Origin: Bacteroidales bacterium
GTDB taxonomy: Bacteria; Bacteroidota; Bacteroidia; Bacteroidales; JAADGE01
Length of the DNA: 64,000 nt
Assembly: GCA_021108035.1 (NCBI GenBank)
Contig: JAIORQ010000100.1
Location: 20,210 to 84,209 of the forward strand
Direction: 5' to 3'
Below are positions 3,905-52,689 of the stretch, piece by piece (position 1 is the first letter of the stretch; each line of letters opens with the position of its first letter). The notes beneath the pieces were generated by a model. The model worked only from the letters and a program-made list of their open reading frames with translations, was not told where the DNA came from and did not search any database. Position numbers and translations under genes: made by a program.

Positions 3905-5857
3905 CTAAAGTAAAGCAGACTTGTCGGTAAAATTGGTTAGTTTAATTTTGAAGTCGTTTAGTTTTAATTTTTCTTGTCTTAATTTTTCCAATTTTTCTTC
4001 TTGTTCTTCAGATTCTTGTTCATATATTTTAATAATCTTTTGATCAATTTCTTTGATTTTTATTTGTACAATTTTTAATTTAAATTTATCAATTGCTTCC
4101 GGAACAGTTTCATATAGTCTCATACCCGGAAGATCAGTAGTGCCTCCTTGTTTGCTCCAAAGTTTCTTGCTTAACTCTTTTGAAGGACCGGTAAGTTCTG
4201 CAACAATACTGCTGATTTTTTCATCTTGATGCTTTAAAAAATAATCGATAATTGATTCATTATCAGAAGAAAAGAATTCCTCATAATCCTCAAAAATTTC
4301 TTTGTATATCAAGTTATTGAATTCTAAATGCTCATTTTTAATTTCATTGATTATATATTGAGCAACTGTTAAATTTGCAATATTATTTTCATCATAAGAA
4401 ATAATTTCATTTCCGAAGTTCAACAAATATGATATTATTTCCTTTTCATTGATTTCAGAAAACACACCTGTTATTTCTGCCGGAATTTGCGGTGTTTGTA
4501 TGGTTTTTTTGTATGTATGTTGATTGAAACGTTTTCTGTTATCATCATAATTTTTTCTTAAGACCCTTCTTACTTCTTCATACAGTATTTCTTCTTTAGT
4601 ATCTAATAATTTTGCCGTTGATCTGATGTATTCGGCACGCAAAATTTTATCAGGGATAACGGCAACAGAACGTACAATATCTTTCACTAAATTTGCACGT
4701 TTTACAGGATCATTATGAGCATCTTCAGCGAGTAGTTTTGCTTTAAATTCAATAAAATCTTTCTCATTTTCATTAATAAAAGTTTCAAGTTCTTGTGTTG
4801 ATTTTGAGCGTGCAAAAGAATCGGGATCCTCACCTTCAGGTAAAGTTACTATTCTAACATTCATTTCTTCTGCAAGAACCAGATCAATACCCCTTAAAGA
4901 TGCTTTAATTCCTGCAGGATCACCGTCAAAAATAATTGTGAGATTGGTAGTAAATCGCCGTACCAGTTTGATTTGATCTGTTGTTAAAGCTGTTCCGGAA
5001 GATGCAACAACATTCTCAATACCTGATTGATACATAGATATTACATCTGTATATCCTTCAACCATGTAACATTTATCATGTTTAACAATTGAGTTTTTTG
5101 CAAAATAGATACCGTAAAGAATTTTTGATTTATGATATATTTCAGATTCAGGAGAATTAAGATATTTTGCTGTTTGACTGTCTTTTTTTAAAGTTCTGCC
5201 GCCAAAAGCAATAACTTTTCCCGAAAGGGTATGAATAGGAAAAATAACACGTTCCGAAAAGCGATCAAAATTATAATTGCTTTCTTTTTTAACAATGGTT
5301 AGTCCGGTATTTTCGAGAAACTTCAATTTATATCCGCTTTTCAATGCTGATTCTGTTAATGCATCTCTTTTCTTCGGACTCCAACCGAGTTCAAACTTTT
5401 TAATAATATCATCTCTGAAACCACGCTCTGTAAAATAACTTAATCCTATATTTTTCCCTTCTTCTGTAGATTGAAGTGTTTTCTTAAAAAAGTTTTTAGC
5501 AAATTCGGTAACGATAAATAAACTGTCTCGTTCTTGTTTTTCTTGGATTTTTTCTTCAGATAATTCTTCTTCAATAACTTCAATGTGATATTTTTTTGCG
5601 AGGATTTTAAGAGCTTCAGGAAACGAAACTTTTTCGTGTTCCATTACGAATTTAACTGCATTTCCGGCAGCACCGCAACCAAAACATTTATAGATACCTT
5701 TAGCAGGAGAAACCATAAAAGAAGGAGTCTTTTCATCATGAAAAGGGCAATTTCCTTTAAAATTTGCACCGGCTTTTTTTAAGTTTATGTAATCTCTTAT
5801 AACATCGTAAACATCGGCGGCATCGAATATTTTATCAACGGTTTCTCGGGGTATCAT
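3905..5857 (-). CDS. dnaG: DNA primase
   Basis: CHC2 zinc finger CPFHDEKTPSF...CFGC, FGGR, KYLNSPE, TOPRIM VEGYTDV and FDGDPAG, DPD motif. Confidence 0.98.
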   Translation of the reverse strand: MIPRETVDKIFDAADVYDVIRDYINLKKAGANFKGNCPFHDEKTPSFMVSPAKGIYKCFGCGAAGNAVKFVMEHEKVSFPEALKILAKKYHIEVIEEELSEEKIQEKQERDSLFIVTEFAKNFFKKTLQSTEEGKNIGLSYFTERGFRDDIIKKFELGWSPKKRDALTESALKSGYKLKFLENTGLTIVKKESNYNFDRFSERVIFPIHTLSGKVIAFGGRTLKKDSQTAKYLNSPESEIYHKSKILYGIYFAKNSIVKHDKCYMVEGYTDVISMYQSGIENVVASSGTALTTDQIKLVRRFTTNLTIIFDGDPAGIKASLRGIDLVLAEEMNVRIVTLPEGEDPDSFARSKSTQELETFINENEKDFIEFKAKLLAEDAHNDPVKRANLVKDIVRSVAVIPDKILRAEYIRSTAKLLDTKEEILYEEVRRVLRKNYDDNRKRFNQHTYKKTIQTPQIPAEITGVFSEINEKEIISYLLNFGNEIISYDENNIANLTVAQYIINEIKNEHLEFNNLIYKEIFEDYEEFFSSDNESIIDYFLKHQDEKISSIVAELTGPSKELSKKLWSKQGGTTDLPGMRLYETVPEAIDKFKLKIVQIKIKEIDQKIIKIYEQESEEQEEKLEKLRQEKLKLNDFKIKLTNFTDKSALL

Positions 5858-5946
5858 TTTTTTAATGCTTGAATGTTTAAATATCTGTCAAATTTTGCCA
5901 ATATAGCTTATGTAAATTAAGAATCCAAACTCTAATCTGCATAAAA

Positions 5947-6693
5947 TTATTTTTTAAACAACTGAGGAATTTTAATGATATTTTTCATTATAACAGTTTG
6001 CCAACCGCCGAGTTTGTTCTTCTTTAAAGCTTTTACATCTTCTTTCATTTTTTTGATGATGTTTTTCAAACTTTTATTGCTTTCACCGCCAATTCTCATT
6101 TTAATCATCACCTCCGGAAGATATGCCGTTGATATTTTATGTTTTCCGAGAAAGCGCAAAATAATATCATAATCGGCAGCAATTTTTAAGTTAGTATCGA
6201 AAACACCGCAATTTTCGTAAACTTCTTTTTTTACAAGAAAAGTAGGATGGGGAGGCATCCATCCTTTTTTTAATTTAGAAAATGTAAATTCTCCGGACTT
6301 CCAATATCTAATTATTTTACCGGTATCTTCTTTTGCAACATACTGCAAATCCCCATAGATGCTATCGATTTGCTTTTCTGAAAAAAGGTTTACTGCTTTT
6401 TCGATTATAGTTTGTTCTGCATAAATATCATCTGCGTGCAAAAAACATATTATATCACCGGATGCATATTTTATCCCTTTATTTAAAGCATCATAAATGC
6501 CTTTATCAGGCTCGCTTATAATTTTTGCAATTTTATCTTGATGTTTTTTTATGATTTGAATTGTATTGTCAGAAGAATTTCCGTCAATAATAATATGTTC
6601 AATATTTTTGTATGTTTGGGAAGATACAGATAAAACAGTATCTTCAACAGTATTTTCGTTATTGTATGTTGCTGTTATTATTGAGACTTTCAT
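5947..6693 (-). CDS. Glycosyltransferase family 2 (WcaE-like)
   Basis: VSIITATYN, IDGNSSDNT, SEPDKGIYDALNKG, LHADD, MPPHPT, AADYD. Confidence 0.92.
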   Translation of the reverse strand: MKVSIITATYNNENTVEDTVLSVSSQTYKNIEHIIIDGNSSDNTIQIIKKHQDKIAKIISEPDKGIYDALNKGIKYASGDIICFLHADDIYAEQTIIEKAVNLFSEKQIDSIYGDLQYVAKEDTGKIIRYWKSGEFTFSKLKKGWMPPHPTFLVKKEVYENCGVFDTNLKIAADYDIILRFLGKHKISTAYLPEVMIKMRIGGESNKSLKNIIKKMKEDVKALKKNKLGGWQTVIMKNIIKIPQLFKK

Positions 6694-6698
6694 ATTAG

Positions 6699-6717
6699 AC
6701 GCTGATTTACGCAGATT
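6699..6717. repeat. Short 10-bp-period imperfect tandem repeat ACGCTGATT-T-ACGCAGATT
   Basis: Read directly between the GT2 start and the stop of the inserted hypothetical gene. Confidence 0.55.
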
Positions 6718-6726
6718 CTTATGATT

Positions 6727-7182
6727 CTATTCAGGCAAGTATCCGGTTTGTATTTTTTTAATTAATAAGATTATTTTATTTAGTGCATTTTTTGTCAGGT
6801 CAAGTATTATTATTTCGTTAATCTCAATTTCAGGATTATTAGTTAAAAATAAACTAAACCAAATACCTCTTTCAAAATTTTCATCACCAATTGTCATTAT
6901 CTGATGTTGTGGCAAATATTGGTTTTTATGCTTAACTTCCCTAAACGCAATTTCTTCATCTGCAATATCATGTATTAAATCATGTTGTTCCCCAATTCCA
7001 CATATATAAGCTACATTTTTTTCAATTGCAGCATTAATAATTTCACTAAATAATTTAGTATTTTTTTCTTTTGCTATAATTACTATACACCAATTCTGTT
7101 TTGGAAAAACATTTTTCCGGCTAATTGCAGAATGTTCTGTAAAATTTACAATTCGATTGTTAATTTTACCAAGAGTTTCCAT
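6727..7182 (-). CDS. Hypothetical protein
   Basis: 151-aa ORF, same strand as its neighbours and tightly packed, with no recognisable sugar-enzyme motif. Confidence 0.7.
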   Translation of the reverse strand: METLGKINNRIVNFTEHSAISRKNVFPKQNWCIVIIAKEKNTKLFSEIINAAIEKNVAYICGIGEQHDLIHDIADEEIAFREVKHKNQYLPQHQIMTIGDENFERGIWFSLFLTNNPEIEINEIIILDLTKNALNKIILLIKKIQTGYLPE

Positions 7183-46306: not shown

Positions 46307-46939
46307 TTAAATTAACCATCGAATTATTTCAAATGCTTCCGCATAAATACATCCTGCCTGTCCTCCTCTGGTTCTGAGGACACTTTCAATAAAGTTTTTA
46401 TCAACATAATCTCTGCCGAGTTGAGAAATATATTTTTTTATGGAACTTATTTTAAGTTTAACATGCTTTTCTGTAAGTCTAATGAATAAATTAGTTGTAA
46501 AGGTTAAATTATTCCAAGGAATTTCATATCCAACTAATGTTGTTTTTTTGAAAGCTCTAAAACCCTCATTTCTTATAACTTGGTGGTCTTGGTGTGTGTC
46601 AAAAGTTGACGGTAAAAAAACTATATCCGGTTTTATATCAGTTCTTATTTTTAAGATATAATCTAATATTTCTTGTCTAAATTCCGGAAACTTCCTAGCT
46701 TGGAATGAATTTATTTCAAAATTTTTTTTTATGCCTAGTATCTCCATTGCCTCACGCATATTTATTTTATTGATATTTTTATCAAATCTGGAGGGTATAG
46801 AGATTTCAGCTGCTGAAAAAGCGACACAAAAAACGTCATTTCCGTTTTCTGTAAATTTAGCAATTGACCCGCCACAACCAAATTCAGCATCGTCAGTATG
46901 TGGTGCAAGTATTAATATTCTTGAATCTTTATTTATCAT
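46307..46939 (-). CDS. PIG-L family deacetylase
   Basis: LAPHTDDAEFGCGG, DTHQDH, YEIPW, EAFE. Confidence 0.93.
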   Translation of the reverse strand: MINKDSRILILAPHTDDAEFGCGGSIAKFTENGNDVFCVAFSAAEISIPSRFDKNINKINMREAMEILGIKKNFEINSFQARKFPEFRQEILDYILKIRTDIKPDIVFLPSTFDTHQDHQVIRNEGFRAFKKTTLVGYEIPWNNLTFTTNLFIRLTEKHVKLKISSIKKYISQLGRDYVDKNFIESVLRTRGGQAGCIYAEAFEIIRWLI

Positions 46940-48102
46940 TTTAATATTTTTTTAACTATATTTCCAAGAGGTTTTAATGGTCTCAAAACCGGATAAGTAT
47001 TATACAAAGACAGCTCTGTTTTAAATTCGGTATGTTCTCTACGAGGGGCATTTATGTATAATTCAAATTCTTGCTCAGAAAAACCCAACTTTTTTAACAC
47101 AAACTCCTTATCTTCCTCACATTGTTCTTTATTATACATTGGTTTTTCCAATTCTTTCAGGGCTTCGTCTTTTGTAATTTGGCCTGAACATATTAGGTTT
47201 GATAAATGTGCTTTTCGTTTATCTATCCCGACCTTTTTCGGTAGAATATATCCTTGATAAAAACGTGTGAAGATTGACTCGTAATGTTTTCCGCCGTAAT
47301 CTTTCCAGTCTAATTCTGATATGATTGTTTCTTTTATTTCACTTTTAACATACAACAGATAATTTAACAAATCAACGGTTTGTATGCCTTTAACTTTTTG
47401 GTAATAATGTTTTGCTTTTGAGCCGAAAAAAGGAAAGGTTTTTAAAGGAATTGTTCCGTATTTTTTATGAATATCTTTGATATTGACGTGATCAGCCTTA
47501 TTAAAAATCCAAGATTTCGGTAACAGAGACTCGGTAACAACATTATTGCCCGAAAGAATATACTTTATATTGTTTTGAGCTGCAATTTTATAAATTGTTC
47601 CAAAAATAGCATGGTCTGTTATTGCTTCTATATCAATAACATTAGCTTTGAAATAAGCAAGTTGAATATCCCGAAACTCATTCCAATTTATAACATAAGT
47701 TTCTAAATCAAAATCAAGTTTAGTAATAATATTTTCGATGTTTTTTACTGCAAGTTCAGAATTCCAACCATTATCAAAATGCACGCAAAGAACTCGCAAT
47801 CCTGCTTTTTTTGCAATATATGCTAAATAGGTACTGTCCACACCGCCGCTGACACCAAGAAGACAATCATATTTTTTATTTTTCCCGGAGTTTTTAATGT
47901 TTTGAATACTTTCTTCAAATTTTTGTATCCCTTTTTCTTCTTTTAAAACATGTTTTTTCTCTTCAATAAAATATTCGTGATAATAATTGCAAACCCCGTT
48001 TTTATCAAAAGTTATATTAGGGTCAGCAATGTTATCCATTACTGTTTTGGTGCATTGCCGGCAGTTATCGGGGATAAACTTTGGGTTTACGTAGTGTTTC
48101 AT
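46936..48102 (-). CDS. N-acetyl sugar amidotransferase (WbuX/WbpG/PseA-like)
   Basis: CRQCTKTVMD, YDCLLGVSGGVDS, HFDNGWNSELA, YGGKHYES.FTRF, DKRKAHLS.LI.SGQ. Confidence 0.93.
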   Translation of the reverse strand: MKHYVNPKFIPDNCRQCTKTVMDNIADPNITFDKNGVCNYYHEYFIEEKKHVLKEEKGIQKFEESIQNIKNSGKNKKYDCLLGVSGGVDSTYLAYIAKKAGLRVLCVHFDNGWNSELAVKNIENIITKLDFDLETYVINWNEFRDIQLAYFKANVIDIEAITDHAIFGTIYKIAAQNNIKYILSGNNVVTESLLPKSWIFNKADHVNIKDIHKKYGTIPLKTFPFFGSKAKHYYQKVKGIQTVDLLNYLLYVKSEIKETIISELDWKDYGGKHYESIFTRFYQGYILPKKVGIDKRKAHLSNLICSGQITKDEALKELEKPMYNKEQCEEDKEFVLKKLGFSEQEFELYINAPRREHTEFKTELSLYNTYPVLRPLKPLGNIVKKILK

Positions 48103-48477
48103 TATAGAATAGGTTTAGCATCTTTTATATTAATGTTTGTTTTAGAGAGAGAATTGTCGGAGCTGGTTAAAAAATCATCTGCAATTATCCTTAAACATTT
48201 TTGGCAGAACATATTATCTGTTTTTTTCATCATCCAAGTTACTTTTTCAAATAATTCGACAGGAAAATTATTTATTCTTTGTTCAACATCTATTTCGTTA
48301 ATTATATTTTTTTCTTTTGTTTACAAAAAAGTCAAGGTCTTCACTATATCTGTGATTCAAATAAAACCGGACAAGTGCAGTTCCGCCGGTTAAGTAAAAA
48401 GGCAAATTTAATGTTTTCCAAAAAACAAGAAATTTATCTTGTAGCCGGTATAATTTCGTGTAACCTGTTTTTAACAT
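48102..48477 (-). pseudogene. AbiEii-type nucleotidyltransferase toxin with an internal deletion/frameshift
   Basis: Not in the ORF track. ATG 48477: MLKTGYTKLYRLQDKFL...FYLTGGTALVRFYLNHRYSEDLDFFVN, stop at 48298. A second frame (48317-48102) gives KEKNIINEIDVEQRINNFPVELFEKVTW...DNSL and ends TAATG on the amidotransferase start. Confidence 0.85.
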
Positions 48478-48736
48478 AAAAATAGTTTTTTCGTAATGAC
48501 GGAAATCTTAATTTATTGATTGTTTTATCTGTTAATAAAAGTTTAGCGGTATTTATATCAAATATTTGTAAAACAATAAACCAAGGAAAAATTTCAATAG
48601 TTTTTTTAAACAAACCGTCAATATCATAATGTCCTGCAAATTTAGCCTCGCCTTTTATAAGTTTATCAACTTCTTCGGGTGAGATTTTGTAATCCCACAT
48701 TAGTTGCCGGTATATTTTTTCCTTTTCTTTTTCCAC
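48434..48736 (-). CDS. Small helical protein, probable antitoxin partner of the AbiEii pseudogene
   Basis: Overlaps the toxin start by 44 bp; LMWDY motif. GTG 48736 preferred because TTG 48766 lies inside hisF and upstream of the promoter box. Confidence 0.6.
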   Translation of the reverse strand: MEKEKEKIYRQLMWDYKISPEEVDKLIKGEAKFAGHYDIDGLFKKTIEIFPWFIVLQIFDINTAKLLLTDKTINKLRFPSLRKNYFYVKNRLHEIIPATR

Positions 48737-48744
48737 AATACCTG

Positions 48745-48752
48745 CAAAGTTA
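48745..48752 (-). promoter_or_regulatory. -7 box TAACTTTG whose first three bases are the hisF-like stop codon
   Basis: Forward CAAAGTTA; stop codon at 48750-48752. Confidence 0.55.
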
Positions 48753-49523
48753 AGATATTTTTTCAAAAATAAATTCTTTAAGGTGTTTCTGAGAAGGGTA
48801 ATTAATTAAAACACCTCTGTTTTTGCTTTTGTAAACAAACATTGAACCTGCTGATACTGCTGATGCTCCGCCGATTATTACAGCTTTTGCAAAATCGTCA
48901 ATGTTTGAAGCACCTCCGTTTGCAACAACCGGTATGCTGACATTATCAGAAACAAGCTTTATCAAATCAATATCATATCCGCTAAAAGTTCCTTCTTTGT
49001 CAATTGTGGTTAAAATAATTTCTCCGGCACCGTGATTTTCAATTGTTTTAACAAAATCAGTCAGTTTTTGTTTTACTTTTCTTTTTCCGGAATTAGTATA
49101 ACAAACATATTTTCCGAACAAGTCTTTTTTTACATCAACTGATGCTACAATGCTTTGATTTCCGTATATTTTTGCTGCTTCTGTAATTAATATCGGCTTA
49201 TTGCCGGCAGAAGAATTAATTATTATTTTTTCAACACCAATACTAAAAATTCTTTTTATTTGATCAATATTTTTTATTCCGCCGCCATATCCGAGAGGCA
49301 TAAAACATTCCGAAGCAATTTCTTCAATAATTTGATAATTCGGTTCTTTTTTGAGATTTGTTGCTTCAATGTCGAGAAAAACAAGTTCGTCAATTTCTTT
49401 TTCGTTAAAGATTTTAACAGCGTTTACAGGATCGCCTATGTAATTTGGTTTTTTGAATTTTATTGTTTTTACAAGACCTCCTTTTTGCAATAATAAAACG
49501 GGTATTACTCTTATTCGTTTCAT
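48750..49523 (-). CDS. HisF-like cyclase subunit of the amidotransferase complex (WbuZ-like)
   Basis: RVIPVLLL..GGLVKT..F....YIGDPVNAVKIFNEKE.DEL, MPLGYGGGI, GAGEI, GT..GYD, AVSAGS.FV; context shows it is the polysaccharide paralogue. Confidence 0.93.
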   Translation of the reverse strand: MKRIRVIPVLLLQKGGLVKTIKFKKPNYIGDPVNAVKIFNEKEIDELVFLDIEATNLKKEPNYQIIEEIASECFMPLGYGGGIKNIDQIKRIFSIGVEKIIINSSAGNKPILITEAAKIYGNQSIVASVDVKKDLFGKYVCYTNSGKRKVKQKLTDFVKTIENHGAGEIILTTIDKEGTFSGYDIDLIKLVSDNVSIPVVANGGASNIDDFAKAVIIGGASAVSAGSMFVYKSKNRGVLINYPSQKHLKEFIFEKIS

Positions 49524-49528
49524 ATAAT

Positions 49529-50143
49529 TTAAAATTCGGTCAAAGATTGTTCTGTCAGAAATTTTTTTATCTCATTTTCAGAAGGGTTTTCCGATAAAAA
49601 AGTAACAGGTTCGGAATAATCAATGTCATCGAAATATGATAGTTGTTGATGAAATAATTTTATATTAAAAGCATCTGCAAAAATTTGTTTTGCCCTGTTG
49701 GTTATTTGATTAAGTGTGATTTCTGATTTCAAAATAAAATACATATCTATATAATCTTTCCATTTGGCTCTGCCTCCGAATGCATAGGCTTTCATTGCTG
49801 CCAAATCAAGTAAAGACGGCAAAGTAATAATATCTTTAAATTTGTGTTTGTGTTCTGTTTTAAAAGGAAAATTAAAAAATGTAAGCTTAACTCCTCCGGT
49901 TACAATATGGAATTGGTCATACGCTTCATGTAGTATTGTATAGATAATTTCATTTTTTTTTAGGAAGTTCTTAATACTTCGCCTTTTTACATTTTTATGA
50001 GTAAATAAATCAAAATCAATTGAACGCCTGTGTCCGATGTAAAGAGCAATCGCTGTTCCGCCAACAAGATAATAATCTGTTGAAAAAACAGAAACAACTG
50101 AAAGTAAGTCTGTTTGTTCTTTATTTAAAATTTCAGTGTGCAT
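49529..50143 (-). CDS. AbiEii-type nucleotidyltransferase toxin (appears intact)
   Basis: YYLVGGTAIALYIGHRRSIDFDLF, LAAMKAYA..GRAKWKDYIDMYFI. Confidence 0.92.
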   Translation of the reverse strand: MHTEILNKEQTDLLSVVSVFSTDYYLVGGTAIALYIGHRRSIDFDLFTHKNVKRRSIKNFLKKNEIIYTILHEAYDQFHIVTGGVKLTFFNFPFKTEHKHKFKDIITLPSLLDLAAMKAYAFGGRAKWKDYIDMYFILKSEITLNQITNRAKQIFADAFNIKLFHQQLSYFDDIDYSEPVTFLSENPSENEIKKFLTEQSLTEF

Positions 50144-50408
50144 ATTTTTGAAAATACAGATTAAAAAAATTAGTAACTTGCGGGAAATAATTAACCCTTT
50201 TTCTTTGAGTTTGTTTGTAAAAAATATCAGCTACATAATTAATTTCCAGCAAATTAAACAGTTTTTTTACAGATTTTTCATCCCCGTAATTTAAGATAAA
50301 TTCAACTAAAACTTCGTGGCTTATATCTTGTTTTTTTTCTTCGGGAATATACCAAAAAAGAGATGAATTTTCTTTTATGAATTCTTTTATTTCAGGTGAG
50401 TTTTTCAT
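50133..50408 (-). CDS. Small protein, probable antitoxin of the downstream AbiEii toxin
   Basis: LFWYIP...VEFILNYGD motif; 11-bp overlap with the toxin start. ATG 50408 preferred because TTG 50444 lies inside the promoter box. Confidence 0.7.
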   Translation of the reverse strand: MKNSPEIKEFIKENSSLFWYIPEEKKQDISHEVLVEFILNYGDEKSVKKLFNLLEINYVADIFYKQTQRKRVNYFPQVTNFFNLYFQKYAH

Positions 50409-50441
50409 GTATTTAAAATTAATCACGGATGTTTCAGAATA

Positions 50442-50449
50442 CAAATTTA
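50442..50449 (-). promoter_or_regulatory. -7 box TAAATTTG whose first three bases are the hisH-like stop codon
   Basis: Forward CAAATTTA; stop codon at 50447-50449. Confidence 0.55.
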
Positions 50450-51064
50450 GTAATTTTCAATAAAATTTCTCAACACTTGCATCCCAAATTTATGGCTTTT
50501 TTCGGGATGAAATTGGATTCCTGTGATATTATCCTTTTCTAAGCCGACAGTAAATTCGTAACCATAAATTGTCTTTGCAGATATATCTTCCTCGTTATTT
50601 GATTTCAAATGATATGAATGAACAAAATAAAACCTTGCATCATCGGGCATATTTCGGAATAATTTGCTTTGCTTGTTATATTCAATCTCATTCCAACCCA
50701 TATGCGGAATTTTGTAGTTTTTTGGAAGTTTATTTTTATCAAAGGCAACAGTTTCAGCATCAAACCAAGCAAGACCTTTTTTTTGACCCTCTTCACTGCT
50801 TTTGGTAAATAATTGCACACCGAGACAAATACCAAGAATAGGGTTTTTGTCTTCCAAGACTTTTTTATTAAGTATCGGAATAAGTCCTGAATTTTCAAGT
50901 TGTTCCATTCCGTAGTCAAAAGAACCTACACCCGGGAGTATTAATTTTTCAGATTGCTCAATATCTTCAATTTTACCGGAAATTATTGATTTATACCCGA
51001 TTTTTTTGAGCATATTTTGTATTGAGCGGACATTGCCGGCTTTATAGTCTATTATTGTGAGCAT
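50447..51064 (-). CDS. HisH-like glutamine amidotransferase subunit (WbuY-like)
   Basis: IIDY..GNV.S, LILPGVGSF, ILGICLG.QL, PHMGWN, FYFVHSY, QFHPEKS. Confidence 0.94.
   Translation of the reverse strand: MLTIIDYKAGNVRSIQNMLKKIGYKSIISGKIEDIEQSEKLILPGVGSFDYGMEQLENSGLIPILNKKVLEDKNPILGICLGVQLFTKSSEEGQKKGLAWFDAETVAFDKNKLPKNYKIPHMGWNEIEYNKQSKLFRNMPDDARFYFVHSYHLKSNNEEDISAKTIYGYEFTVGLEKDNITGIQFHPEKSHKFGMQVLRNFIENY
51002..51064 (-). repeat. Copy A of a 63-bp direct repeat (first 21 codons of the hisH-like gene)
   Basis: Matches 52518-52580 with 4 substitutions. Confidence 0.92.
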
Positions 51065-51155
51065 TATATTTTTAGATGTTTTTTAATTGATTATCTATTT
51101 GAATACTGAAAAAAGATGTTTCGATAATTGATTTAATAGAACTTTCTCAATCATA

Positions 51156-52430
51156 TTATTTTTTTATAAAATCAGATAAATTCCATGCCTGTATATGTTT
51201 TATACCGTTTCTTTCGTTAAGAATAATATCGTCTAATGAGATAACTATTTTCGGAAAATTGTCGTTAATAGATTCAAGCGAACGGTATTCTCGGTCTATT
51301 GTTTTTTCATCTGTCATTAAATAAGTTACTTGTATATAAATTGGTTTTGCATTTTTTATTGCTACAAAATCAACTTCTTTATTTCGTAAATACCCGACGT
51401 AAACGTCAAAACCGGCATTTATTAATTGTAAGTAAACAAGATTTTCTAATTTATATCCTATTCCGTAAGCAAAACCTGCGTAAATATAATTTTTGTAAGA
51501 CAGGTCGTTTATATAAAATTTAAAACTGCCTGCCAGCGTTTTTTTTCCGGAAATATTATATTTTTCTGCTTGATGAATCAAAAAGCTGTTTTTCAGATAA
51601 TTTATATAGTTAGCAATGGTTTCGTAACTGGTTTTTTTATTTTTGCTTTTATAATAGTTGACAATATTATTTATAGAAATTAAATTTGATGCGTTATTTA
51701 TAAGAAAACTAAAAATATCTTCAAGCAGTTTGGCATCTTTTATTTTGTATCTTTGAATAATATCTCGCAGTAAAATTGTGTCTTTTACAGCAGTAACATA
51801 GTGTCTTTTAGTCTCTTCATTACTTAAATTAAACAATTCGGGCAAACCGCCTGAATTAAGATATTGCAAAAAACTTTGTTTTGTATTTTGTAACTTAGCA
51901 AAAGTAATATATTCGATATAAGAAAACGGCAATATTTGAAACTCCACATATCTGCCTGATAAATAGGTGGATAATTCTCCGGCAAGTAGTTCGGAATTTG
52001 AACCTGTAATAAATATTTCAAATTCCCGTGTATAATCTTGCGAAAAGGAATTAATTGTTTTCTCCCATGAATTTATATTTTGAATTTCATCTACAAAAAG
52101 GTATATTTTGCCTTCGGGTTTTATTTTTTCAATATATAAATTTATTAAATCTGATAAATCAATGTGTGTTTGTATGAAATCAAAATCGGTAAATTCTTTA
52201 TTAATATACAAAATATTTTTTGCAGGCGTATTATTATTTTTCAAATAACGCATTATTTGTCGTAAAATATAACTTTTCCCGCTTCTGCGTTGACCTACAA
52301 GAACTTTTATTAGTTTATTTGATAAGTAATTTTGTATTTTGGACAGATAATATTTTCGAATAAATCCGTAATTTGTGATATTTTTATCCCAAAAGTTATA
52401 TTTTTTTAATATTGAGATTTTATCAGACAT
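51156..52430 (-). CDS. AAA+ ATPase with a DUF4143-type C-terminal domain
   Basis: Walker A GQRRSGKS, Walker B LFVDEIQ, ITGSNS, YLNSGGLPE, KFYIND, LENLVY..L, EVDFV. Confidence 0.92.
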   Translation of the reverse strand: MSDKISILKKYNFWDKNITNYGFIRKYYLSKIQNYLSNKLIKVLVGQRRSGKSYILRQIMRYLKNNNTPAKNILYINKEFTDFDFIQTHIDLSDLINLYIEKIKPEGKIYLFVDEIQNINSWEKTINSFSQDYTREFEIFITGSNSELLAGELSTYLSGRYVEFQILPFSYIEYITFAKLQNTKQSFLQYLNSGGLPELFNLSNEETKRHYVTAVKDTILLRDIIQRYKIKDAKLLEDIFSFLINNASNLISINNIVNYYKSKNKKTSYETIANYINYLKNSFLIHQAEKYNISGKKTLAGSFKFYINDLSYKNYIYAGFAYGIGYKLENLVYLQLINAGFDVYVGYLRNKEVDFVAIKNAKPIYIQVTYLMTDEKTIDREYRSLESINDNFPKIVISLDDIILNERNGIKHIQAWNLSDFIKK

Positions 52431-52445
52431 GGTTTAAATTTATGT

Positions 52446-52453
52446 CAAAATTA
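52446..52453 (-). promoter_or_regulatory. -7 box (TAATTTTG) of the ATPase gene
   Basis: Forward CAAAATTA, 15 bp upstream of the ATG at 52430. Confidence 0.55.
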
Positions 52454-52517
52454 CAATTTTATAAGCCACAGCAAAAAATATTGTATGTTTTTTTTTATAA
52501 AAAACCTATAAATTTAA

Positions 52518-52580
52518 TTTTTTGAGCATATTTTGTATTGAGCAGACGTTGCCGGCTTTGTAGTTTATTATTGTGAGCAT
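52518..52580 (-). repeat. Copy B of the hisH 5' duplication, a dead stub (MLTIINYKAGNVCSIQNMLKKLNL*)
   Basis: 59/63 identical to 51002-51064, read directly. Confidence 0.92.
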
Positions 52581-52689
52581 TAAGAAATTTATAGAACCTT
52601 TATAGCTTTTTATTAAAATTTGAAAATAATAGTTTAATCAATATCTGTTTTTAGCTTTGTCCCTGTTTTATAACAGACACAGCATTTTT

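Follow-up and report, generated by a model that had tools for sequence, protein, structure and literature searches.

The 64,000-nucleotide (nt) window analysed here, a stretch of contig JAIORQ010000100.1 from an uncultured member of the Bacteroidales, contains between 41.7 and 58.2 kb a single minus-strand polysaccharide operon in which an enzyme module is interleaved with toxin–antitoxin-like and ATPase genes. The operon encodes a flippase, a hexapeptide acetyltransferase, a methyltransferase, a PIG-L deacetylase, a GNAT protein, WbqC and glycosyltransferases, and its G+C content is ~24–33% throughout, with no step at the inserts. It also encodes the three subunits of a WbuX/WbuY/WbuZ module for acetamidino modification of sugars, specified by wbuX, hisH and hisF. 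All three subunits are present and full length, each scoring above the curated cut-off of its profile (Table 1); for hisH this is the HisH model of the histidine pathway, TIGR01855, the profile library having no separate WbuY model. WbuX of the window is 74–82% identical to WbuX of the genomes G001, G009, G024, G093, G224 and G220. The trio is not contiguous: both of its internal junctions and the 5' end of hisH are interrupted. The genome, labelled G000, is metagenome-assembled (4.96 Mb, 116 contigs), and the stretch is present in marine-sediment metagenomes.

A preliminary description of this DNA had reported that cassettes interrupt the trio at its junctions, that an antitoxin/AbiEii pair follows hisH, and that the inserts are co-oriented, lack terminators and leave the host reading frames intact. 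The gene calls and coordinates bear this out. The pair after hisH consists of an intact 91-amino-acid (aa) partner and the 204-aa AbiEii1, all genes at the locus are on the minus strand, the host genes are full length, and the sole terminator-like hairpin found (46853-46825) lies within the PIG-L gene directly downstream of wbuX. Two further statements stood in part. There is a second pair after hisF, unrelated to the first, but its toxin is not merely divergent, the gene having a 335-nt frameshifting deletion relative to contig L028. An AAA-DUF4143 ATPase gene is present before hisH, but it does not simply precede it, being bracketed by a 65-nt repeat of hisH codons 1-21.

Table 1. Features of the interrupted trio, in order of transcription (window positions; ORF, open reading frame)
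Feature	Position	Strand	Basis
hisH 5' remnant, dead 24-codon ORF ending TAG	52506..52582 (repeat copy 52518-52582)	(-)	94% identical to functional copy
ATPase a, AAA_14-DUF4143 ATPase with predicted PD-(D/E)XK nuclease domain, 424 aa	51156..52430	(-)	PF13173 E = 1e-30; PF13635 E = 3e-14
Direct-repeat copy forming the functional hisH 5' end (2 nt + codons 1-21)	51002..51066	(-)	65-nt repeat D1
hisH/wbuY, glutaminase subunit, 205 aa, intact	50447..51064	(-)	TIGR01855 228 bits vs cut-off 105; PF00117
anti1, small partner upstream of AbiEii1, 11-nt overlap with toxin start	ORF 50133..50444; likely ATG 50408, giving 91 aa	(-)	start by comparison with relatives
AbiEii1, candidate toxin, compact MenT1-like nucleotidyltransferase, 204 aa, intact	49529..50143	(-)	PF08843 45.4 bits vs 22.5; PADLOC AbiEii
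hisF2/wbuZ, cyclase-like subunit for acetamidino modification, 257 aa, intact	48750..49523	(-)	NF038364 360 bits vs cut-off 310; TIGR03572 294 bits
anti2, small partner, intact	ORF 48434..48766 (TTG 48766); likely GTG 48736, giving 100 aa	(-)	90% identity to L028 partner
AbiEii2 N-terminal fragment, 59 aa, keeps GGTA...D.D, premature stop	48298..48477	(-)	PF08843 36 bits, E = 9e-9
AbiEii2 335-nt deletion junction	48322..48323	(-)	window–L028 alignment
AbiEii2 C-terminal remnant, out of frame with N-terminal piece	48102..48322, including 43-aa ORF 48102-48233	(-)	aligned to 3' end of L028 AbiEii2
wbuX, N-acetyl sugar amidotransferase, 388 aa, intact	46936..48102	(-)	TIGR03573 282 bits vs cut-off 203

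Pair 1, between hisH and hisF, is predicted to be an intact MenAT1-like toxin–antitoxin module. AbiEii1 carries the catalytic nucleotidyltransferase motif hG[GS]x9-13Dh[DE]h, as G28-G29-T30...H38-R39-x-S41-x-D43-x-D45, and the downstream motif K...R..(K/R)D..D, as K118...R125...K129-D130..D133; in an alignment of 60 homologues, residues G29, T30, H38, R39, S41, D43, D45, K129 and D133 are invariant. The AlphaFold2 (AF2) model (pLDDT 94.3, pTM 0.90) has MenAT1/MenT1 as its best Foldseek match (8an5_B, E = 5e-6, TM 0.52/0.56), further matches being JHP933, MenT4 (6y56, TM 0.64) and TglT/MenT3 (6j7p). A sequence-profile search of the PDB with the same protein matched no chain. The subfamily comprises at least 7,844 proteins at E <= 1e-20, and the source names among the matches listed include Bacteroidales and Bacteroidetes metagenome-assembled genomes (MAGs), a Proteobacteria MAG and an Altiarchaeales MAG. 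By analogy with MenT, the nucleotidyltransferase would stop translation through extension of tRNA 3' ends, and the 91-aa protein encoded upstream would act as its neutraliser. A 29-nt repeat (D8) had raised the possibility that the C-terminal tail of AbiEii1 is a captured 3' fragment of hisF; this was rejected, the P.E.EIK.FL tail being conserved throughout the subfamily in all contexts. A low-depth contig of metagenomic run X3 joins 49472 to 50480 and so skips 49473-50479, comprising pair 1 and the ends of hisF and hisH. The joint was not used: only 20 letters match on one side, the implied deletion is imprecise, and the contig may be a chimaera or come from another organism.

Pair 2, between hisF and wbuX, is damaged. 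Its closest relative is L028, a 2.4-kb contig equivalent to G014:C346, which belongs to the same genus (hisF 93% identical) and bears the same cassette with an intact 236-aa AbiEii2 (PF08843, E = 4e-12). The N-terminal fragment of the window is 81% identical to the N-terminus of this protein and the 43-aa ORF of the C-terminal remnant is 86% identical to it, the stop of the remnant overlapping the wbuX start codon (TAATG). The 335 nt missing in between cannot be divided by three, and the frame is shifted as a result. On either side of the deletion is a short imperfect repeat, TTTTTTG(T)AAA(Y)CAAA, and a slippage-type event would have only just destroyed the toxin, leaving the partner gene to survive. 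Loss of the toxin first, with the partner outliving it, is the usual order of toxin–antitoxin decay. Contigs from X6, a sediment run from an unrelated study, are 90–95% identical to the window, part from it exactly at the deletion (48320/48329) and beyond that point encode residues missing here (QNENYNEYI, LNYKFNWKDV); intact alleles therefore coexist in nature. Homologues of anti2 are found upstream of AbiEii2 in G093, G224 and L152. An origin of pair 2 as a local duplicate of pair 1 was rejected, the toxins being 23% identical and the partners matching only at E > 1.

The third cassette, ATPase a, matches the PADLOC defence candidate PDC-S01 (PDLC04787, E = 2.7e-139), a type represented by ~33 genes in this genome. 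The hisH remnant upstream of it differs from the functional copy by D6N and R13C, and hisH stays whole because the insertion duplicated its first 63 nt. The spacers flanking the ATPase gene (51067-51155 and 52431-52517) are non-coding, and no second copy of either was found in the genome or in the fetched loci. The X6 strain has no ATPase a upstream of hisH, the hisH ATG being the very point where its sequence and that of the window part. The ATPase insertion and the AbiEii2 deletion are the only events at the locus that look recent.

The inserted genes are most likely transcribed with the glycan genes, since they are co-oriented with them, have overlapping or near-zero spacers and are accompanied by no terminators that could be found. 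A sigma-70-type promoter scan was uninformative (44 sites found, 44.8 expected). The sequence TAnnTTTG, which resembles the Bacteroidetes -7 box, occurs at the hisF stop (48745-48752), at the hisH stop (50442-50449) and 16 nt before the ATPase ATG (52446-52453), and the copy at the hisF stop is also kept at the empty sites of G001, G009 and G024. It was rejected as evidence of cassette promoters: its frequency in this AT-rich window is that of chance (128 observed, 125 expected), and it is therefore only a hint of internal promoters.

The history of the pairs can be read from the gene orders of relatives, given here in the direction of transcription. The window reads methyltransferase, hisH remnant, ATPase a, hisH, pair 1, hisF, pair 2 (toxin deleted), wbuX. 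G001, of the same genus, has sulfotransferase, hisH remnant, ATPase b, hisH, ATPase c, pair 1, hisF, wbuX; the metagenome contig L154 has sulfotransferase, hisH, ATPase, pair 1, hisF, wbuX, with no ATPase upstream of hisH, the position of ATPase b in G001. In G024, of another genus, the order is hisH, pair 1, hisF, wbuX with spacers of 0-2 nt, and in G014/L028 it is pair 1, hisF, pair 2 (intact), wbuX. G009 has a pair, AbiEii, cysC, an ATPase c-like gene, hisF and wbuX. Two genomes of family f70 carry both pairs: G093 has hisH, ATPase, pair 1 (toxin split into 69 + 128 aa), hisF, pair 2 (intact, 248 aa), wbuX, and G224 has hisH, pair 1 (with GG changed to RG), hisF, pair 2, a YhcG-like PD-(D/E)XK gene, an AlbA_2 fragment, wbuX. 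G220/L029 (family f66) reads hisH, hisF, pair 3, wbuX, where pair 3 consists of a DUF6922 partner (E = 7e-13 in L029) and a 214-aa AbiEii. In G358 (family f108), ATPase b, 83% identical to that of G001, is followed by hisH and hisF. Pairs 2 and 3 begin immediately beyond a conserved TAAYTTTG, at a distance of 8-9 nt from the hisF stop, and in both the toxin stop overlaps the wbuX ATG.

Pair 1 is found at the hisH|hisF junction in G001, L154, G024, G093 and G224, and directly upstream of hisF in G014; pair 2 is found at hisF|wbuX in G014, G093 and G224. These genomes span families f1 and f70, and overall the two pairs appear to share their positions with no fewer than three families of the Bacteroidales. 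The related loci form a clade of nine in the hisF tree (support 92/95); seven of them have pair 1, the exceptions being the sister pair G220 and L036. The amino-acid identity of pair 1 to that of the window is 75% in G001, 61% in G024 and 64% in G014 (over the residues present), and anti1 is 75–85% identical to its counterparts in G001 and G024. Synonymous divergence (dS) of pair 1 is ~1–1.6, with a nonsynonymous to synonymous ratio (dN/dS) of 0.08–0.22 (0.08–0.11 for anti1); hisH, hisF and wbuX have similar dS and a dN/dS of 0.05–0.20, albeit that a dS above 1 is saturated and such rate comparisons are rough. The resemblance of pair 1 to its host genes in both measures argues for long co-residence under purifying selection. 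WbuX is 80–82% identical across families f1, f66 and f70 and equally so within the genus, which indicates that the module moves horizontally and that the pairs move with it.

Within this shared arrangement the toxins change, or are exchanged, faster than their surroundings, AbiEii2 having only 45–46% identity between the G014 and f70 types where hisF has 73–77%. AbiEii1 of G014 is a mosaic, its last ~40 residues being near-identical to those of the window and its overall identity 64%. Toxins also seem to be lost or crippled singly, lineage by lineage, as with the AbiEii2 deletion of the window, the split AbiEii1 of G093 and the RG change in G224. A single open frame in L156 (5448-6525) fuses an anti2-type N-terminus, two AbiEii2-type pieces and an anti1-type C-terminus; it lies upstream of a 174-aa AbiEii1 and has the form of a recombination scar between adjacent pair-2 and pair-1 cassettes.

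Occupancy of the junctions is frequent among the related loci and rare elsewhere. Of the related-clade loci, 8/10 carry something upstream of hisF and 5/9 at hisF|wbuX, the occupants being the three pairs, at least four different ATPases, the YhcG-like PD-(D/E)XK gene and the AlbA_2 fragment. The distant comparison set consisted of 80 metagenomic HisF2 loci of 48–77% identity. Here hisH and hisF are tightly joined in 71/72 cases (median spacer -1 nt) and hisF and wbuX in 41/46; of the five hisF–wbuX junctions that are not tight, four contain ordinary glycan genes, and the remaining one has a 358-nt gap without a separate ORF. A match to AbiEii, partner or ATPase was found at 0/80 of these loci. 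The trio is contiguous in G039, G047, L031 and L032. In L033, a distant member of the Bacteroidota, a 523-aa SLFN/AlbA_2-HATPase_c_4-HTH gene (5354-6925) stands alone between hisH and hisF, a fourth kind of occupant. In L034, from an uncultured 'Chlorobi' MAG, hisF2 is truncated after ~127 residues and followed by unrelated sequence (1805-2317), and an AAA_14-DUF4143 gene 42% identical to that of the window lies 2.3 kb downstream. The window genome has nine PF08843 matches, two of them at the trio's two internal junctions; the probability that two of nine fall there by chance among ~4,300 junctions is ~1e-5 by our own, post hoc arithmetic.

The hotspot proposed in the preliminary description is borne out to the extent that these junctions are recurrently occupied in relatives and almost always tight in distant loci. 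It is not specific to the trio, since other glycan-gene junctions in these genomes are also colonised, the same cassette types occurring at cysC, at the 5' ends of GT2 genes and in other operons. Examples come from the same family: in G013 cysC has AbiEii genes on either side, and in G019 an ATPase, pair 1, DUF433 and a further ATPase lie within a glycan locus. G015 (L144 = G015:C84, 6000-12800) has five AbiEii-type genes in ~5 kb among glycosyltransferase fragments, and in L152 and L156 pair 2 and pair 1 stand side by side with MNT/HepT and AbiEi-like/AbiEii pairs, beside a GT4 gene.

Some details of these other sites deserve mention. About 12 kb past the end of the window, at C3:96129-96697, a decayed pair (a 107-aa DUF6922-type partner and a truncated AbiEii of 96 aa) begins 3 nt after the cysC stop, between cysC and the gene of an NAD-dependent epimerase in a second glycan-type operon, with an AlbA_2 gene nearby (92500-93279). 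L144 contains two near-identical C-terminal glycosyltransferase fragments of 119-123 aa, each followed by pair-1-type and DUF6922/AbiEii cassettes; the arrangement, which a PIN-domain-like gene adjoins, looks like a duplicated cassette block. At 1500-6400 in L152 four toxin–antitoxin modules stand in a row by the GT4 gene, namely a pair-2 type, a pair-1 type, MNT/HepT and a 204-aa gene with a 257-aa AbiEii, and a PDDEXK_3 gene follows them.

Surface-glycan loci are prime phage targets and undergo frequent recombination. Taken together, the observations suggest that the acetamidino-sugar module of this glycan operon has probably long been colonised by small cassettes of defence or addiction type, the pairs having co-diverged and travelled with the trio, whose junctions act as a persistent landing pad. 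The module has three lodgers: the intact pair 1 between hisH and hisF; pair 2 between hisF and wbuX, an unrelated member of the same system type; and a PDC-S01 ATPase-nuclease gene placed in the first 63 nt of hisH. The pairs would have diverged together with the trio under purifying selection, with the composite module moving between Bacteroidales families, and the trio junctions, along with other glycan-operon junctions in the lineage, would form a sink where cassettes accumulate and are exchanged. The likely payoff would be the expression of abortive-infection or addiction functions together with a phage-targeted surface glycan.

Several points weigh against this interpretation, besides the saturation of dS. 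Only about ten loci represent the related clade, and the gene trees within it are poorly resolved, so that one ancient gain followed by losses and several gains at the same junction both fit and cannot be separated on the sequences. Pair-2 toxins are 45–46% identical between the G014 type and the f70 type, compared with 73–77% for hisF. Neither anti1 nor anti2 matches Pfam (tried to E <= 5), NCBIfam or PADLOC, and hhalign relates them only weakly to DUF6922-type (PF21956) proteins, at 54% probability (E = 1.3e-4) for anti1 against nine such partners and 40% (E = 2.9e-4) for anti2 against the DUF6922 group. RNA evidence of co-transcription was sought, and the runs holding the stretch are of DNA only. 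Cassettes also occur outside glycan loci, with a pair upstream of a 686-aa gene in C10 and an ATPase in a hut operon (hutI-like/ftcD), and for enrichment in glycan loci there are examples but no genome-wide count. Finally, toxicity, neutralisation, co-transcription, defence and stabilisation of the locus are all properties that we infer.

That the cassettes instead represent three recent, independent insertions into this genome, with the wbuX/hisF/hisH trio as a specific hotspot, is improbable. The preliminary description had counted three independent inserts, and as far as origin is concerned this is upheld: the toxins of pairs 1, 2 and 3 are 23–31% identical and the ATPases 23–28%, and so great a divergence points to independent acquisitions. 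It fits recent insertion, too, that all three window copies of these cassette families lie at trio junctions and that the X6 strain is without the ATPase upstream of hisH. The pairs, however, are not hits on this genome in particular. Other genera and families have them at these junctions too, with dS and dN/dS resembling those of the host genes, which largely refutes the idea for both, and the same cassette types occur at cysC, GT2 and hut junctions elsewhere.

A shade less credible is co-option, whereby pair 1 would now work in the glycan pathway, for example by nucleotidylating the sugar or a carrier. This would explain its conservation between hisH and hisF, and is consistent with the tight coupling to both genes and with purifying selection as strong as that on the enzymes. 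However, homologues of 50–76% identity occur in toxin–antitoxin clusters without hisH or hisF, with MNT/HepT, AbiEi/AbiEii and DUF433 as neighbours, and the very large subfamily extends to sources named as Proteobacteria and Altiarchaeales MAGs. The tight hisH–hisF junctions of the distant loci (71/72) leave no room for pair 1, which is matched at none of the 80, so that those trios work without it. The toxin is moreover broken in G093 and absent in G220 with the trio intact in both, and the fold and catalytic motifs of AbiEii1 are those of MenT toxins. An assembly or binning chimaera of a glycan locus with unrelated contigs, conceivable for a metagenome-assembled genome in 116 contigs, can be dismissed, because an independent 34,952-nt Logan contig spans the whole stretch with zero differences and separately assembled sequences from other samples (G001, G024, G093, G224, L154 and L028) show the same order.

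How the cassettes move is a separate question, on which the duplications that bracket them bear. ATPase a and ATPase b of G001 are 23% identical, yet both lie between a decayed hisH remnant and a functional hisH, and the boundaries of the two duplications are identical, from the ATG to codon 21. By a k-mer method, direct repeats scoring >= 40 flank 4/30 ATPase genes of G000, compared with 27/3,000 random 1.18-kb intervals; the repeats are 61-108 nt long ungapped, or up to 154 nt by BLAST. Among AbiEii pairs in all sequence examined, 5/36 have flanking repeats scoring >= 20, compared with 42/3,000 random intervals. Each comparison gives p ~2e-4 by our own binomial arithmetic. In five cases the repeat consists of the start codon and ~18-21 codons of the invaded gene, namely hisH in G000 and G001 and GT2 genes in L158 (MTTQPLVSILMTAYNREK), L144 (KLSIITVNLNNAKGL) and L145, where three GT2 5' fragments surround an ATPase. 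The repeat takes another form at C5:84591-86051. Here an AAA_14-DUF4143 gene separates a hutI-like gene from ftcD, and on each side of it stands a 61-nt copy of the final 22 codons of the hutI-like gene upstream, each copy with its stop.

The first 75 nt of hisH are 84–95% identical between loci, compared with 64–77% for the rest of the gene. As a sign of a dedicated recombination site this was rejected, the conservation being mostly that of an invariant protein with diverged synonymous sites. The exception is G358, whose hisH is a mosaic: its 5' 75 nt are 88–89% identical to G000 and G001 and the rest 61–69%, whereas L156 and G039, equally distant, reach only 63–68% in the first 75 nt. The ATPase b cassette therefore seems to have come to G358 with a hisH 5' patch. 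No hisH remnant was found upstream of it within the 490 nt available. The ATPase cassettes show no conserved ends, shared inverted repeats or nearby recombinase gene, and inverted-repeat pairs are only weak (70–80% complementary), none of them bracketing a cassette. There is no transposase, and the repeats, at 30-154 nt, are not the short fixed ones of insertion sequences or transposons; nor was a shared end motif of the integron-cassette kind seen in the pair junction sequences read, or an integrase among the genes scanned at 41.7-58.2 kb. In L021 (G001:C55, 8983-9067) three tandem 32-nt units with TTGTCA...TTGACA-type inverted motifs separate the hisH stop from ATPase c.

Two routes may be considered. 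A cassette carrying one conserved 5' coding patch may recombine with the same patch in a related gene: a circle, possibly excised between flanking repeats, would integrate in Campbell fashion to give patch, cassette, patch and an intact host gene, with no dedicated recombinase. This is a tentative but serious possibility. It accords with repeats that begin no more than a few nt from the ATG and run to about codon 18-21 in the five cases, with two such different ATPases in the same hisH patch with the same boundaries, with patches that are the best-conserved DNA of their genes, with the mosaic hisH of G358 and with the lack of shared ends, inverted repeats or a nearby recombinase gene. It does not account for the origin of the first patch–cassette–patch arrangement, neither a circular nor an empty-site junction has been directly observed, and it suits less well the repeats at C23, C21, C50 and C5, which are 43-154 nt long and lie in non-coding or 3'-end positions. 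The other route, which seems unlikely, is a transposition- or integrase-like process with target duplications of ~40-150 nt or att-type repeats, in which selection keeps the insertions that regenerate a gene end. The enrichment of flanking repeats at ATPase genes and AbiEii pairs is compatible with it, and the C5 duplication resembles elements that restore the 3' end of their target. Against this, the repeats are of no fixed length (30 to 154 nt) and start at the ATG instead of anywhere upstream, the cassettes lack conserved ends and a recombinase gene of their own, and two unrelated ATPases share identical hisH boundaries. Recombination through short conserved coding patches is favoured over transposition with long target duplications.

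A broader proposal is speculative, and rather doubtful as a whole: PDC-S01 and DUF6922-type/AbiEii genes of the Bacteroidales may be cassettes that gain entry to operons by way of short conserved 5' coding patches (in hisH or GT2 genes, the stretch between the start codon and roughly codon 20), duplicating the patch, rebuilding the host gene and remaining swappable at the same pad. Such a system would be integron-like without a recognisable integrase, and would tie the expression and inheritance of abortive-infection genes to a surface glycan recognised by phage.

The significance of the locus lies in toxin–antitoxin and candidate defence genes that are interleaved with one enzyme module rather than parked beside it, that are inherited with it across families and that are probably co-transcribed with it. 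If the pairs are active, partial deletion or replacement of the module would also remove an antitoxin, and the pairs could serve as glue for a mobile glycan module; abortive infection would likewise be coupled to receptor expression. The locus also offers three leads. One is a compact and very widespread MenT1-like toxin subfamily with an uncharacterised small partner, another the natural intact and broken alleles available for direct comparison. The third is the duplication of the first ~20 codons of an invaded gene, a reproducible signature that may reveal movement of PDC-S01 and AbiEii cassettes.

Amongst known systems, pair 1 most resembles MenAT1 (Rv0078A/Rv0078B) of the MenT/AbiEii (DUF1814) family. 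MenT toxins add nucleotides to the acceptor ends of tRNA, and the antitoxins that counter them are diverse, some small and others large (PMC10435456, PMC7450476, PMC11375011). The likeness extends to a toxin of ~200 aa with the hG[GS]...D.D and K..R..KD..D motifs and a predicted MenT1 fold, and to a small partner gene directly upstream that overlaps the toxin gene. The partner differs, being a 91-aa protein with an LFWY...NYG motif that is at best distantly related to DUF6922 and is neither MenA1 nor AbiEi, and the pair, known here from sequence and model, sits inside a biosynthetic operon. A literature search found no paper mentioning DUF6922. With the type IV system AbiE the locus shares a toxin recognised by the Pfam AbiEii and PADLOC AbiEii models; the AbiEi antitoxin (COG5340, winged helix, ~200-300 aa) is absent, the upstream genes here encoding 91 and ~100 aa. 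An AbiEi/AbiEii pair lies upstream of the E. coli group 2 (K2) capsule cluster; it is reported to be conserved in >500 genomes, to be co-transcribed with the capsule genes and to affect phage susceptibility (PMC12488582). Both cases link an AbiE-type pair physically to surface-polysaccharide genes, but the E. coli pair flanks its cluster, whereas here two pairs and an ATPase gene are lodged amid the subunit genes of a single enzyme module and accompany it from family to family.

ATPase a has the two-domain architecture of PDC-S01 (COG1373), AAA_14 with a DUF4143 PD-(D/E)XK domain; bracketing by duplications of a host-gene end is not described in the literature found. Integrating elements that rebuild the end of their target gene include SXT/R391 in the 5' end of prfC and tRNA-gene islands, and integron cassettes form a further point of comparison. 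As in the end-rebuilding elements, direct repeats of the target flank the insert and the host gene keeps a complete copy. The inserts here, however, are 1-1.5 kb, with no integrase, attC-like site or conserved ends, and with repeats of variable length. Like defence and toxin–antitoxin islands, the locus clusters several unrelated defence-type genes that turn over between strains and decay; unlike them it has no separate island, the genes being interleaved one by one with biosynthetic genes on the same strand. The literature search found no description of gene-by-gene intercalation in one enzyme module, of its cross-family persistence and co-divergence, or of a recurrent duplicated-5'-end signature at PDC-S01 and AbiEii cassettes. 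The parts themselves are of known kinds: MenT/AbiEii toxins with a small partner other than AbiEi, a PDC-S01 candidate and a WbuXYZ-type module.

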